A stretch of DNA of 64,000 nucleotides from Patescibacteria group bacterium (GTDB lineage: Bacteria; Patescibacteriota; Minisyncoccia; Moranbacterales; UBA2206), in NCBI GenBank assembly GCA_030837625.1, contig JAUPKF010000004.1:1075-65074 (forward strand), in the 5' to 3' direction. The notes beneath the pieces are model-generated. The model saw only the letters and a list, made by a program, of their open reading frames with translations, ran no database searches and was not told the origin of the DNA. Every line of letters starts with the position of its first letter. Position 1 is the first letter of the stretch. Below are positions 34,876 through 41,197 of this stretch, piece by piece. The translations under genes and the position numbers were made by a program.

Positions 34876-35859
34876 TTATCCTACAAGACCACTGACTACT
34901 TTTTCCAAGGCTTGGGATGAATATTGAGGATACTCTCTTTCAATCTTGTCCAATCCATTCCTGGAAAGTAAGAGAATATTTTTCAATTCAGGACTCGCCA
35001 CAGAAAGGACGCGAGAGTCTCGATAGCGAAAGAAAGAAACTATGTATGGTTTAAGTTCAGCTGATTCTTGAAAAATATTTTCCGCTTGGGAATGGGTAAA
35101 GTTGGCAGCATATTTCTCCACTTCTGAAAGCGCCTGAATAAACACATCCTCAAATCCTGCATCCTCTCCTTTTCTACTGCTATGTTTTTCAAAAGATACA
35201 CTGTCCTTTTTGCTCTTACTCTTTCTTTTGAAACCAATATCGAAAGTAAACAATCTTCCAAAAATAACCACCAAAGCCAGCGCCACAAGAATCGCCGCTG
35301 CCGCATATGTCCAGGGAGCATAAAATTTCCAAAGATATATTATTTTATAGTAAAACGCCTGCCAGATATTGGCTGGGATAACGGTGAAATATAGTTTGGC
35401 GGCGGCGGCAATTCCGATTACCGCTCCTTCGGAGTTTTCACTTGTCTTGGCCGGACTGGCTTCCACATAAGCAAAATATTTCCCTGGTTCCAGCTTAACC
35501 GGAAGACGGAGCGTAACTTGAACGACTTGAGTTTCTCCGGGGCCCAAATCAAATTCCCGCGGGCCAAATTCGAACCATTCCTTTTGCGGACGATGTTCCG
35601 GCACTCCCTCATGATATTGAATGCCAACTGAATAGGCGGAAGCCTCGTCCCCCGTATTCCGGACGGTGAGAGATGGCATAGAATATATTCCTCCGGGTTT
35701 TAAATCTTCATTGAGTTCAATCTTAGCCGTTCCCACCCCCACTCCGATCTTAGCGAAAGAAATTTTAGCAAAAAAAATTCCCCAAACAAAAAAAGCGGCA
35801 AAAACAACGAAAGAAATTAATGACCGCTTGTTCATAAATTTTCCATTTCTCAAAATCAA
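34876..35859 (-). CDS. Bitopic membrane protein: signal/anchor, beta-sandwich-like ectodomain, TM, cytoplasmic tail
   Basis: 327 aa. N-terminal hydrophobic segment, beta-rich 150-aa domain, central TM YAAAAILVALALVVIFG, then a 130-aa polar tail. Confidence 0.5.
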   Translation of the reverse strand: MILRNGKFMNKRSLISFVVFAAFFVWGIFFAKISFAKIGVGVGTAKIELNEDLKPGGIYSMPSLTVRNTGDEASAYSVGIQYHEGVPEHRPQKEWFEFGPREFDLGPGETQVVQVTLRLPVKLEPGKYFAYVEASPAKTSENSEGAVIGIAAAAKLYFTVIPANIWQAFYYKIIYLWKFYAPWTYAAAAILVALALVVIFGRLFTFDIGFKRKSKSKKDSVSFEKHSSRKGEDAGFEDVFIQALSEVEKYAANFTHSQAENIFQESAELKPYIVSFFRYRDSRVLSVASPELKNILLLSRNGLDKIEREYPQYSSQALEKVVSGLVG

Positions 35860-35861
35860 AT

Positions 35862-36452
35862 CTATTGATAGTAAACCGCCTGAACAGTAACTGTGGCCGT
35901 TTGTTGGGTATAGGTGGCGGTTGTTGTCGGAGTTCCGATTTCCAAATCAAAAACTTGGTTTCCAGTATCAGCCACGTCGTTGGATAATTGTTGGTAGTTG
36001 GTTGTAAGCGCCGTCCAGCTCGGCGTAGTATCGCAAGTAGTGGTGCAAAATTTATGGGTATAATTTTCCGCTCCGGCCGTTCCGGCAAGTGTCCACGCGG
36101 CTGTGTTGAAGCCGCGGACATTGAAGTCCTCCGTTACGTTTCCATCATTGTCAGCCGTTTGAGAGTCGTTCACTCCGGAAGAAGTTGTGTCTTCCGTAGT
36201 GCTCGTCGCAATTGTTCCATAGGAAACCGCTCCATCGGTAACCGCCACGGAAATACTTTGCGCCGTTACTGTCGCCGTCACATCCCCTGTCTGCGCCGCC
36301 CTTACTGAAACAGCCATAAAAATGGCCGCCACGACACAAACGCCGATCTTTAGAAAATAATTTTTCATTATTTTGCTTTTTGTTTTCCCTTGAATAAATC
36401 CCTTTTTGTATAATTCTATCATATTAGAAATAATACACAAGGCAACAAGCAA
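35862..36452 (-). CDS. Small secreted protein sharing a C-terminal domain with the 983-aa surface protein
   Basis: Signal peptide with AxA site (SVRA-AQ). The last 130 aa are colinear with the C-terminus of 36479..39430 through NDGNVTEDFNV / NDGNVAENFNI, GTAG, QVFDLEIGTP / QDFDLKIGTP, TATVTVQAV. Confidence 0.6.
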   Translation of the reverse strand: MLVALCIISNMIELYKKGFIQGKTKSKIMKNYFLKIGVCVVAAIFMAVSVRAAQTGDVTATVTAQSISVAVTDGAVSYGTIATSTTEDTTSSGVNDSQTADNDGNVTEDFNVRGFNTAAWTLAGTAGAENYTHKFCTTTCDTTPSWTALTTNYQQLSNDVADTGNQVFDLEIGTPTTTATYTQQTATVTVQAVYYQ

Positions 36453-36478
36453 ATAAATTATCCACAGTCAGGAAATAT

Positions 36479-39430: not shown

Positions 39431-39722
39431 TTTTTTCTCCGTCCACGTCGCGAAGCATTGAGCGCGCTTCCAAAATACCGCCCAGAAAGAAAGCGGAAAA
39501 TGTTACTTTTGAAATATTTTTGACTATTTCCAAGGTTGGATTTCCCGTGAAAATCAGACCGGAAATTTCCGAGATCACTAGAAACACAAGCGCGGCGAAA
39601 AAAAGTTTGTAGGATTTGTCCAGCTTCATCTCTGTCCGCCAGATAATTCCCAAAAGAAATACGCCGGACAAGAGCAAAAGGACGATTGAAAAAATTTGCG
39701 AAGCAAAGCTGATAATTTCCAT
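39408..39722 (-). CDS. Small membrane protein (104 aa)
   Basis: Three hydrophobic helices. Overlaps the start of the giant surface protein gene by 23 nt. Confidence 0.4.
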   Translation of the reverse strand: MEIISFASQIFSIVLLLLSGVFLLGIIWRTEMKLDKSYKLFFAALVFLVISEISGLIFTGNPTLEIVKNISKVTFSAFFLGGILEARSMLRDVDGEKNEGREQK

Positions 39723-39736
39723 TTTTTTATTTTAGC

Positions 39737-41197
39737 TTAATTAATGTATCTTTTTCTTTTGAGAAATCTCTCCGTAATATGAAATAATGCCTGCTTTGTC
39801 AAATGATGTTCCCAAGCGGTTAGCATTAAAAGTATCAAGAGTATCAAGATAGCCAGGAAAACCAACCAACCTAAATTACTCATGATATCGGTCATGGTTA
39901 TGAGCGTGCCCGCGCCAATTTTGATAACCGAACGGTCTTTCAGAATAAAATATCCTTCGTGGCTGACAGTCGTTTCTCCGACTGTAACATTGACTTGCAG
40001 CTTGTATTTTCCAGTTTTCAATTTATATGACAATGGAATTTTTTTTCCCCAAGAAAGGCCACCCGCAAAATCAATCCTGTCTCTAAATTCCTCGGAAAGA
40101 CCATCGCTCCCTGAAATGACATAGATTATCTCCGCTTGGCCATATTTTTCAGCCTCCTTATTAAAAAGTATTTTTGCGTCCAAGTTTTCTCCACGGTAGG
40201 CTTCTTCAGATATCTCAACGCCCCGAATATACGTTTCTCCCTGCAACTCGACATCGAAGTCGAAAGGTTTTTCCGCCGATTCCTTTTCTATTTCTGTTTC
40301 CACTTCCAAATCCTTATCTTCTCTTTCCTGGATTGGAACTAGAGGCACGGACTCTACCACCGAACTGGTTTCCGATGTTTCCTCGTCTTCTTCTTCGTCA
40401 TCCTCGCTTTCTTCTTCCTCTTCTTTGATCTTAAAAACTAAAGAGGTGCTGGCCGTAACGGAAGGGTCTTGCGGATCGACGGCGGTTACATAAATAGTGT
40501 GAGTCACCCGAGACAAATTAACCCCCGGCGTCCATTGCCAAAAACCATTACTATTGGCTCCAGTCTCAGCGTAAATTATCGGACCGCTGTGAATTTCTAT
40601 ATTTATCACGGCATTGGCAATGCTAGTTGAACCAGAAAAAGACGGGGTTCTGTCAGTCGTGGAAGGAATTCCATGATAACTGGCAACATTTTTTCCTCTG
40701 AAGGTGGTAATGGATATTTCCGGAATTGCGTTTTGCGAACAATTCATCGACGCTACCGAAACTGGGTCAGAGACGGCGTTTCCCATCGGACCGACCGCCG
40801 TAACAGTATATGAATAGTTAACTCCATTTCCTGCGCTTTCATCCGTATAATAATTATCCAAAAGACCGGACATAAGTTCGGCTCCGCCGCGATGAATATC
40901 GTAGGAAGTAGCATCATCTTCTTCGTTCCAAGAAAGATATACGTAGGGCTGGTTTTGTCCGTCACACCCGGCGCTTGCGGCAAGAACTGGCGGATCCGGC
41001 GGACCAAAAACTTTTACCACGGCCGAAACAGTCACTCCGGCTACCCGTCCCTTTTGGTTAATATCAGAAAGAAGCGCCCCCCAGCCTAAAAAGTATCCGG
41101 ACAAAAGATAAGCCGCCATAAAAAATCCGGTTAAGGCCAGATGAAGCTTGAAAAGTTTTTCAAGATTTATTGTTCTTTTTTTGATTTTGTTTCTCAT
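39737..41197 (-). CDS. Membrane-anchored surface protein with FN3-like and Ig-like domains and an acidic linker
   Basis: 486 aa. N-terminal anchor, SWNEEDDATSYDIHRGG (FN3-like), poly-Glu linker EEEEESEDDEEEDEE, C-terminal TM LVFLAILILLILLMLTAW. Confidence 0.6.
   Translation of the reverse strand: MRNKIKKRTINLEKLFKLHLALTGFFMAAYLLSGYFLGWGALLSDINQKGRVAGVTVSAVVKVFGPPDPPVLAASAGCDGQNQPYVYLSWNEEDDATSYDIHRGGAELMSGLLDNYYTDESAGNGVNYSYTVTAVGPMGNAVSDPVSVASMNCSQNAIPEISITTFRGKNVASYHGIPSTTDRTPSFSGSTSIANAVINIEIHSGPIIYAETGANSNGFWQWTPGVNLSRVTHTIYVTAVDPQDPSVTASTSLVFKIKEEEEESEDDEEEDEETSETSSVVESVPLVPIQEREDKDLEVETEIEKESAEKPFDFDVELQGETYIRGVEISEEAYRGENLDAKILFNKEAEKYGQAEIIYVISGSDGLSEEFRDRIDFAGGLSWGKKIPLSYKLKTGKYKLQVNVTVGETTVSHEGYFILKDRSVIKIGAGTLITMTDIMSNLGWLVFLAILILLILLMLTAWEHHLTKQALFHITERFLKRKRYIN

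Follow-up and report, generated by a model that had tools for sequence, protein, structure and literature searches.

Five envelope genes on one strand

We analysed a 64,000-nt stretch of DNA (hereafter, the window) from a Patescibacteria group bacterium of the Moranbacterales (contig JAUPKF010000004.1), and we describe here a surface-protein locus at positions 34876-41197 that may encode a minimal pilus-like assembly. An initial annotation, made from the sequence alone, had proposed five consecutive minus-strand genes for envelope proteins at this place, and all five co-oriented open reading frames (ORFs) have been found there. In 5' to 3' order, they encode the protein B (39737-41197, 486 aa), the small membrane protein T104 (39408-39722, 104 aa), a giant surface protein (36479-39430, 983 aa), a small secreted protein (35862-36452, 196 aa as a mechanical ORF) and the membrane protein M (34876-35859, 327 aa as a mechanical ORF). 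The genes lie close together, the gaps between them being 2-26 nt long, and in one place they overlap by 23 nt. The giant and the small secreted protein have a C-terminal domain in common, which we designate S, and the two are called large-S and small-S below.

Two of the mechanical starts have been revised. The true start of small-S is most likely Met29 (36368), because homologues are 165-180 aa long, and the revised gene (35862..36368, minus strand) encodes 168 aa in which a signal peptide is followed by a conserved N-terminal extension and then by the S domain; M most likely starts at Met9 (35835) because of a similar comparison with homologues, which gives 319 aa (34876..35835, minus strand). 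Between an upstream rubrerythrin-like gene and the gene for B lies a strong intrinsic-terminator-like hairpin (41227..41248, minus strand; a 9-bp stem with 5 GC pairs and a T-run), which was found in a consensus scan only and is likely to mark the 5' boundary of the transcription unit. A sigma-70-like promoter sequence (TTGCCT-16-TATGAT at 36418..36445, minus strand), which is a consensus match only, agreeing at 9/12 positions, sits in the 110-nt gap ahead of the Met29 start of small-S and may serve as an internal promoter raising the expression of this putative major subunit. Neither S protein has an LPXTG signal, the chains stopping right after the last beta-strand (...TVQAVYYQ and ...TVQAVEY), and no sortase gene is present within the locus; a sortase-assembled pilus was rejected on these two grounds.

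A domain shared by a small and a giant surface protein

The initial annotation had noticed a colinear domain of about 130 aa, which it did not recognise, at the ends of the 196-aa and 983-aa proteins. BLASTP has confirmed the match, which is colinear, lies at the extreme C-terminus of both proteins and extends over 135 aa with 46% identity and 67% positives (E = 3e-30); in the giant, BLASTP and hmmsearch place the S domain at residues 852-983 (36482..36877, minus strand). The libraries do not recognise the domain either: S has no match in Pfam, NCBIfam, PHROGs or a PDB sequence-profile search, and a member-by-member Pfam scan of 62 S-family relatives was equally blank. For all five window proteins, Pfam, NCBIfam and PHROGs gave a Big_13 domain in B as the sole match, and PDB sequence-profile searches with the giant and with M gave noise only. 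The concern of the initial annotation that S might turn out to be a well-known anchoring domain has not been borne out, since no similarity to SLH, LysM, WxL, CWB or LPXTG was seen in Pfam and NCBIfam.

Relatives of the S domain fall into at least 269 90%-identity clusters in the protein database, mostly of the small subunit. Almost all small-S relatives are within the length range given above, are unnamed and, where a source is named, come from Patescibacteria. In the aligned set their identity to the window protein is 52-82%, and small-S is the most conserved component of the cluster. Members begin with an AxA-type signal peptide, followed by the nearly invariant sequence TATVTATVTVQN-ISVSVSDGxVxYG; further marks of the family are an invariant Trp in W-T-L, a CxxxC pair that is confined to small-S and not found in large-S, F-D-L...T-P, and a C-terminal strand VDVTVQAVA.

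The AlphaFold 2 (AF2) monomer model of small-S is all-beta, with a predicted local distance difference test score (pLDDT) of 91.5. When this model was compared with the PDB by Foldseek, about 20 of the 24 top matches were chaperone-usher pilins, with CS20 and PapE first (probability 0.99 for both) and FimG/F/A, PapA, CsuA/B and CfaB after them; E-values were weak (0.009-0.3), and the list also holds the filament subunit of an archaeal Sulfolobus thread. Judging from the model, the S domain resembles a pilin-like immunoglobulin (Ig) fold.

The segment between the signal peptide and the S domain of small-S is a candidate donor strand (36255..36296, minus strand; residues 25-38, AQTGDVTATVTAQS, with the family consensus TATVTATVTVQN). 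The 12-14 residues past the signal-peptidase site have a mean entropy of 0.84, on a par with the core strands (0.79-0.98), and the remaining core segments of S are less conserved than this extension (1.04-1.36). In the AF2 monomer the extension is a coil outside any sheet, with pLDDT of 74-84, below that of the core. It is found in the small-S proteins (76 compared; consensus AAdTAtVTATVTvQN-ISV) and is missing from 67 of 67 large-S proteins, in which the homology begins at ISVSxxDG after variable sequence of the preceding domain. The same division is known from chaperone-usher systems, where the polymerising pilin carries an N-terminal extension and the pilin domain of the tip adhesin does not; the split between small-S and large-S is identical.

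The giant consists of an N-terminal transmembrane (TM) or signal segment, a variable head, fibronectin type III (FN3)-like and Ig-like modules, and a C-terminal S domain without the extension. Its head (37511..39223, minus strand; residues 70-640) contains two modules of about 235 aa and a unit of about 65 aa. The head modules match 3,510 representative proteins at E<=1e-3, and many of these are stand-alone proteins of 240-340 aa in which the module starts from residue 2-3, apparently without a signal peptide. In the window head, neither the larger modules nor the 65-aa unit belongs to a Pfam family; the 65-aa unit occurs in up to 22 repeats in a protein of 4,026 aa (Pfam DGF-1_5). The FN3 module noted earlier in the giant has stood in part: the usual FN3-like pattern can be seen in the window sequence, but Pfam detects none in the 983-aa protein. 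Pfam fn3 matches occur in 2 of 10 other large-S proteins, one of them above the cutoff and just ahead of the S domain.

Across 87 loci, large-S proteins span 228-1517 aa, always with S at the extreme C-terminus. Their heads vary from locus to locus and include DUF7483, fn3, Laminin_G_3 (a ConA-like lectin) with DUF2341, and a sub-threshold BNR-like match; such heads would suit adhesins, and we propose the giant to be a tip adhesin. Its higher GC content, to which the initial annotation had drawn attention, has been confirmed, with 0.547 over 37-39 kb and about 0.44 in the surroundings, but it gives no sign of a separate origin. The excess is explained by amino-acid composition, because it sits in the second codon position (GC2 = 0.54; Thr, Ser, Gly and Ala make up 46% of residues), whereas the GC content of third positions (GC3 = 0.50) does not leave the range that the neighbouring genes show (0.38-0.59). 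On this basis, we rejected the idea that the giant was acquired by horizontal transfer.

The chaperone-like partner and the conserved gene cluster

The AF2 model of M (pLDDT 87) begins with a signal helix and a single beta-sandwich, which are followed by an amphipathic helix and the TM helix; a disordered linker then leads to a helical bundle. The ectodomain is PapD_N-like (35368..35751, minus strand), its first strand being IGVGVGTAKI and its last strand IGIAAAAKLYFTVIPAN; a lysine is nearly invariant in the former and another is invariant in the latter. The cytoplasmic helical bundle (34882..35154, minus strand; model residues 229-319, pLDDT 96-98) is confined to the variant class of loci to which the window belongs, where it may couple assembly to something cytoplasmic. 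Most members of the M family are only about 205 aa long.

PapD_N is the commonest weak Pfam match in the M family, occurring in 19 of 53 members with a best E-value of 9.8e-5. We compared the M ectodomain by hhalign with the N-domains of 12 diverse chaperones (FimC, YadV, MrkB, PefD, Caf1M, DraB, FaeE, FedD, CssC and three more), and obtained a probability of 82.6% and E = 9.7e-6 over 96 colinear columns, which cover nearly the full domain, including the G1 donor strand. Cross-controls were all <=5%. The real score was 36.3, against 12.3 +/- 2.3 (maximum 19.9) for column shuffles and 13.2 +/- 3.3 (maximum 22.2) for block-shuffled chaperone profiles; reversed and shuffled profiles all remained <=22.2, and the probability in shuffled controls was at most 8%. 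On this profile-level evidence, the M ectodomain is homologous to the N-domain of PapD/FimC chaperones, and we propose that M is a membrane-anchored chaperone or assembly factor.

In chaperones of the PapD type, the pair Arg8/Lys112 holds the C-terminus of the subunit. MAFFT aligned the mature N-terminus of FimC (GVALGATRV) with GVGVGTAKI of M, placing Arg8 of FimC opposite the nearly invariant Lys, and aligned the chaperone sequence SRIKLYYRP with AAAAKLYFTVxP of M, in which the invariant Lys belongs to the last strand AAAAKLYF. At the level of these alignments, the basic residues in the first and last strands of M may be the counterparts of Arg8 and Lys112.

The extension present in small-S only, the pilin-like model of S and the relationship of M to PapD/FimC together speak more for a fibre or other assembly made by strand exchange than for a module that binds the wall. 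The initial annotation had suggested that S might be a wall-binding C-terminal domain, and for the same three reasons this part of its proposal is not the one we favour. In the corresponding explanation, S would be a passive anchor by which two otherwise unrelated secreted proteins are fixed to M or to peptidoglycan, and subunits would exchange no strands. The constant C-terminal position of S behind very diverse heads is typical of anchoring modules, and small-S could compete for binding sites or regulate them. We nevertheless regard this explanation as improbable. Besides the dissimilarity to the anchoring families named above, the best structural matches of the S model are pilins and not carbohydrate-binding wall anchors, its obligatory neighbour M is a relative of pilus chaperones, and the most conserved protein is small-S, which possesses a dedicated conserved N-terminal strand.

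The M family was found in 166 stretches of a species-representative genome collection, and the best 80 of the 166 were taken as loci for analysis; the S and M profiles were run against six-frame ORFs of all loci. In most of about 85 Patescibacteria loci, large-S, small-S and M recur in this order on one strand, and thus the synteny on which the initial annotation had made its view depend is present. When the neighbourhoods of about 80 loci were clustered, the only recurrent families were S, M and two others, designated X and Y; no large beta-barrel gene that could be an usher recurs. The named sources and titles of cluster carriers are mostly Patescibacteria lineages, and among the record titles are Pace-, Moran-, Dojka-/WS6, Davies-, Levy-, Woese-, Wolfe-, WWE3 and Saccharibacteria. 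Of the TPA_asm titles of metagenome-assembled genomes (MAGs), a sizeable minority name other groups, namely Gammaproteobacteria, Pseudomonadales, Bdellovibrionales, Bathyarchaeia and Chitinophagaceae (L012, L050 and many TPA_asm loci, L011 and L019-L022 being examples), and these contigs are probably mis-binned or mislabelled MAGs.

This linkage bears on another explanation, in which S would form a self-assembling matrix fibre of the TasA/camelysin or archaeal type without a chaperone, M having an unrelated role. Homologues of TasA (PF12389) have been reported in Patescibacteria (PMC9245690). TasA/TapA fibres, archaeal bundling pili and Sulfolobus threads resemble the proposed assembly in having Sec-exported beta-rich subunits, for which donor-strand polymerisation has been proposed or shown, and in possessing accessory anchor or initiator proteins and no outer-membrane machine. 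They differ in that the present cluster has no Peptidase_M73 signature, a different best fold class and a dedicated chaperone homologue. Peptidase_M73/TasA (PF12389) was not matched by Pfam in the 62 S-family members, no SipW-like signal-peptidase family is among the recurrent neighbours, and Foldseek ranks chaperone-usher pilins first; furthermore, the tight S-M linkage and the chaperone homology of M speak for a chaperone-dependent route. This explanation is very improbable, and we have set it aside because neither a PF12389 nor a SipW-like signature was found.

Family X lies directly downstream of M in 70 loci and consists of secreted proteins with a Cys-rich module, a Pro/Thr linker and an end with a sub-threshold Dockerin_1/EF-hand match. 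Proteins of family Y, whose genes also lie just downstream of M and occur in 62 loci, have CxxC...CxxC motifs as well as TM segments, and their Cohesin domain exceeds the Pfam cutoff (31.5 and 26.3 bits against 24.1). Examples of such X/Y genes downstream of M are found in L004 (11233-12931), L011 (10672-12366) and L010 (10546-12112). When a position-specific scoring matrix (PSSM) of the S extension was run over 2,806 non-S ORFs, X accounted for 23 of the 60 top matches, yet it makes up 2.5% of the set, and the top-scoring matches in X are mostly at the mature N-terminus (VxATV(K/R)ISVC). X may thereby plug into the last subunit of a fibre and dock on the membrane cohesin Y, so that X and Y may form a cohesin-dockerin tether for the fibre base.

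A minority class of loci, comprising the window, L001 and L091-L094, is a variant whose M has the extra cytoplasmic helical bundle. X and Y are missing in the window and in its close relative L001, and the other relatives of the variant class have no cohesin- or dockerin-bearing neighbour among the called genes. Upstream in the window, L001, L092 and L094 is a protein of about 480 aa, Big_13/FN3-like and with a C-terminal TM helix, namely B and its counterparts (L002 and L003 are duplicates of L001); L091 and L093 have different upstream genes in its place. B starts with a hydrophobic segment, followed by a conserved T/V-rich strand KGRVAGVTVSAVVKVF and PPDPP. An FN3-like module and a Big_13 Ig domain come next, a poly-Glu/Asp linker leads on to another beta domain, and a TM helix at the C-terminus precedes a short basic tail. 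The initial annotation had described this 486-aa protein as FN3/Ig-like with a poly-Glu linker, and the modules agree with that description, the Big_13 match being just at the Pfam threshold (27.1 bits against a cutoff of 27.0). T104 is a polytopic membrane protein of small size, encoded by the gene that shares the 23 nt mentioned above with the start of the giant, and is an extra component of the window and L001; among the relatives examined, a called counterpart (102 aa) is present only in L001. L092 and L094 have no called gene at the corresponding position, and L094 has a 416-nt stretch without a called gene there.

The initial annotation had also likened the locus to Gram-positive WxL-type surface loci. 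WxL clusters of Firmicutes contain a WxL protein of small size, a large protein with a C-terminal WxL domain and an Ig-fold membrane protein (PMC9772566, PMC10599100), and AF2 work has proposed that a strand of WxLIP completes the incomplete WxL sandwich (PMC10599100). We collected genuine WxL/WxLIP clusters of Enterococcus, Melissococcus and Listeria from plasmid-collection records in a search seeded with a tryptic peptide from a paper supplement, and constructed WxL profiles of 9 and of 120 sequences. In the real clusters of these records the genes follow one another as large WxL, in some cases an LPXTG protein, small WxL and WxLIP, and a Listeria cluster has the same gene order as the window. 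With its small domain-only protein, its large protein bearing the same C-terminal domain and its Ig-fold TM protein, the present locus has the same make-up.

This parallel in three-part layout and gene order stands, but WxL homology has failed every sequence test. PF13731 was found at E<=10 in 0 of 62 S-family members and in all 120 genuine WxL proteins; hhalign of S with both WxL profiles gave <=0.7%, equal to negative controls; and S keeps one W-T-L (W92, T93, L94), the second Trp-x-Leu being absent and the C-terminal motif being VxV. WxL homology of S was rejected on these three results. A colinearity of S and WxL seen by eye (ISVSVSDGxVxYG with LSIDYxSSxDFG; RG...WxL) was dropped, as it had no statistical support. 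The sole sequence-level link to WxL is a 667-aa protein encoded directly upstream of large-S in L091 (3639-5642). In this protein, a true WxLIP_PGBD (DUF916) domain (45.8 bits, E = 7.5e-12) is accompanied by another beta domain and a TM helix, and also by LytR_C and a LysM-like stretch. Such a neighbour occurs in only 1 of about 90 loci, and it was therefore rejected as a general feature of the cluster.

An assembly may resemble WxL complexes without homology of S, and in such an explanation small-S and large-S would be held on the envelope by M through strand complementation, displaying the head and forming no fibre. In its favour, besides the layout, gene order and the L091 protein, the usual locus has one small-S, one large-S and one M, as the commonest WxL cluster has one of each counterpart, and two independent comparisons each gave a weak but colinear alignment of M with DUF916 (E about 0.003, probability 9-10%). 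The likeness extends to the variable adhesin-type heads of the large protein, to an Ig-fold partner with a C-terminal TM helix and to the AF2 prediction of a beta-sandwich completed in trans. On the other side, M is far nearer to PapD_N (83%) than to WxLIP (5-10% by hhalign), and has one Ig domain with a TM helix, whereas WxLIP consists of DUF916 (PGBD), DUF3324 (HBD) and a TM helix. PF06030 and PF11797 gave no match in 53 members of the M family. WxL/Csc clusters belong to Lactobacillales and Bacillales, a different phylum, and often include an LPXTG protein or a sortase, neither of which is present here. The profile results for S and the rarity of the DUF916 neighbour also speak against this explanation, which leaves unexplained why the extension is restricted to small-S and why X has a similar strand. 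We consider it unlikely, while giving it more weight than the passive anchor and the self-assembling matrix fibre.

Small WxL proteins of Firmicutes themselves have a conserved N-terminal strand YxSNGxIxF, and a Pro-rich linker about 40 aa long connects it with the domain (L087, L088, L090 and the 120-sequence alignment). This strand looks like a tethered donor strand, and WxL clusters may also use inter-subunit strand exchange.

A candidate usher-less pilus

We favour, with a probability of roughly 0.6, a minimal usher-less and chaperone-assisted pilus-like assembly constructed by donor-strand exchange. All parts would be exported via Sec. M, a one-domain relative of PapD/FimC held in the cytoplasmic membrane by its C-terminal helix, would cap the pilin-like S domain of subunits just after their export, while this domain is incompletely folded. 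The 983-aa protein, whose S domain has no donor strand, would start the fibre and end at its tip, showing its variable head as an adhesin. Copies of the 168-aa protein, the polymerising major subunit, would then join one after another, the conserved N-terminal T/V strand of each going into the S domain of the subunit before it. Finally, the base of the fibre would be tethered to the membrane, in the window by the 486-aa protein B and in most other Patescibacteria by the secreted X, whose S-like strand and dockerin-like end would link the fibre to the membrane-anchored cohesin Y. We infer strand insertion, polymerisation and the order of assembly from the combination of the above results, and the roles of B, X and Y are assigned in the same conditional manner. 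The initial annotation had suspected an attachment or adhesion apparatus, and we agree that this is a dedicated cell-surface locus whose job is most likely attachment.

Several points weigh against a pilus. Typical loci hold exactly one small and one large S protein, which also fits a 1:1:1 complex like that of WxL. A sequence relationship between S and pilins of E. coli is absent (hhalign only 2.4%), and of the pair of domains that make up a chaperone M possesses just the first. The first strand of M lies outside the hhalign coverage, and the Arg8/Lys112 equivalence, which rests on MAFFT, is shifted by two residues in the hhalign alignment. The N-terminal strand of B does not match the S-extension PSSM, so its candidacy as an S-like donor strand is unsupported and the architectural analogy to PamR, described below, is what is left. 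The structure models are of monomers only, and any evidence of polymerisation and strand insertion is indirect.

The proposed pilus shares several characteristics with chaperone-usher pili (Fim, Pap, Csu, CFA/I and Caf1): a chaperone N-domain homologous to M (hhalign 83%), the pilin-like Ig fold in the small-S model, an N-terminal extension of the polymerising subunit in which small and hydrophobic residues alternate, and a tip adhesin composed of a binding head and a C-terminal pilin-type domain without the extension, as in large-S. The differences are that an outer membrane and an usher are absent here, that M lacks domain 2 (PapD_C) and is membrane-anchored whereas the chaperones are two-domain periplasmic proteins, that anchoring is proposed to occur via a TM protein or a cohesin-dockerin pair, and that S has no detectable sequence similarity to classical pilins.

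A closer parallel is offered by the Pam pili of Ca. Mycosynbacter amalyticus and other bacteria of the candidate phyla radiation (CPR), for which they were first described in a preprint of June 2026. In the parts of the preprint available for this comparison, cryo-electron microscopy is reported to show that PamA/PamB pili form through donor-strand exchange; genes for FimC/PapD-like chaperones, which have a TM helix at the C-terminus, are present in the operon, and there is no usher; PamT is a tip pilin without a donor strand; and PamR, which has FnIII domains and an additional strand at its N-terminus besides a C-terminal TM helix, is proposed as the filament terminator or anchor (Troman et al., bioRxiv 10.64898/2026.03.03.709456). 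The link to chaperones is reported there at the structural level (bioRxiv 10.64898/2026.03.03.709456). Our reading was reached independently, and by analogy with Pam as so described, the window locus would be a variant of the Pam-type logic.

Both systems are found in CPR bacteria only, which are monoderm, and are usher-less; both have a FimC/PapD-like chaperone held in the membrane by a C-terminal TM helix (M, and PamC/D) and a tip subunit without a donor strand (large-S, and PamT). The truncated Ig-like domain of Pam pilins is completed by a strand of the neighbour, and the same is proposed for S. The layout of B is comparable to that of PamR by sequence and by the Big_13 match, with the reservation on its N-terminal strand given above, and by this analogy we infer that B may be the membrane anchor or terminator of the fibre.

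There are also differences. The subunit here is a single mature domain of 143 aa whose proposed donor strand lies at the N-terminus, like that of classical chaperone-usher pilins, whereas PamA/B are two-domain pilins of 39-55 kDa (an N-terminal beta-sandwich domain, a linker donor strand and a truncated Ig-like C-terminal domain), an architecture that small-S does not have. M has one Ig domain and PamC/D have two; the tip here is a giant with a hypervariable head and PamT is single-domain; most S/M loci have a cohesin/dockerin pair and none is mentioned in the description of Pam; and S/M loci appear to be spread over more lineages than the Saccharimonadia and Microgenomatia, on which the emphasis is placed for Pam. 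Within the same portion of the preprint, nothing is said of the sequence homology of M and PapD_N, of a pilin with a single domain, of the conserved triad found across the phylum or of the cohesin-dockerin pair.

A more far-reaching proposal, which we put forward tentatively and regard as somewhat less likely than not, is that the S/M cluster represents a second family of usher-less chaperone/donor-strand pili, distinct from Pam. It would be more minimal and phylum-wide, with a single-domain pilin, a one-domain anchored PapD_N homologue, hypervariable tips and mostly a cohesin-dockerin tether, and it would tie chaperone-usher pili evolutionarily to a monoderm lineage because M has sequence-level homology to the chaperones of Gram-negative bacteria. 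If this is true, the cluster could be an ancestral, pre-usher form of this assembly principle.

CPR bacteria are tiny, mostly uncultured episymbionts whose lifestyle hinges on attachment to host cells, and most of their surface proteins are unannotated. The present cluster is widespread and yet unnamed in any library. The pilus reading names its probable major subunit and predicts that host-binding specificity resides in the hypervariable heads of large-S proteins. The relationship of M to PapD_N gives a statistically supported sequence link from CPR systems to classical chaperone-usher chaperones, and the cohesin-dockerin pair carried by most clusters suggests a mode of fibre anchoring that has not been described before.

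Three minor observations concern other parts of the window. A cluster of four tRNA genes (Trp, Thr-GGT, Tyr and Thr-TGT) is present at 50484-51511. A tRNA-Gln gene at 30775-30847 is overlapped by two long spurious ORFs (29788-30804 and 30623-30874). Amid genes for pyruvate:ferredoxin-oxidoreductase-like subunits is an ORF of 124 aa (44460-44834), whose product may resemble the 'four-helix-bundle / 23S rRNA intervening-sequence protein' family.

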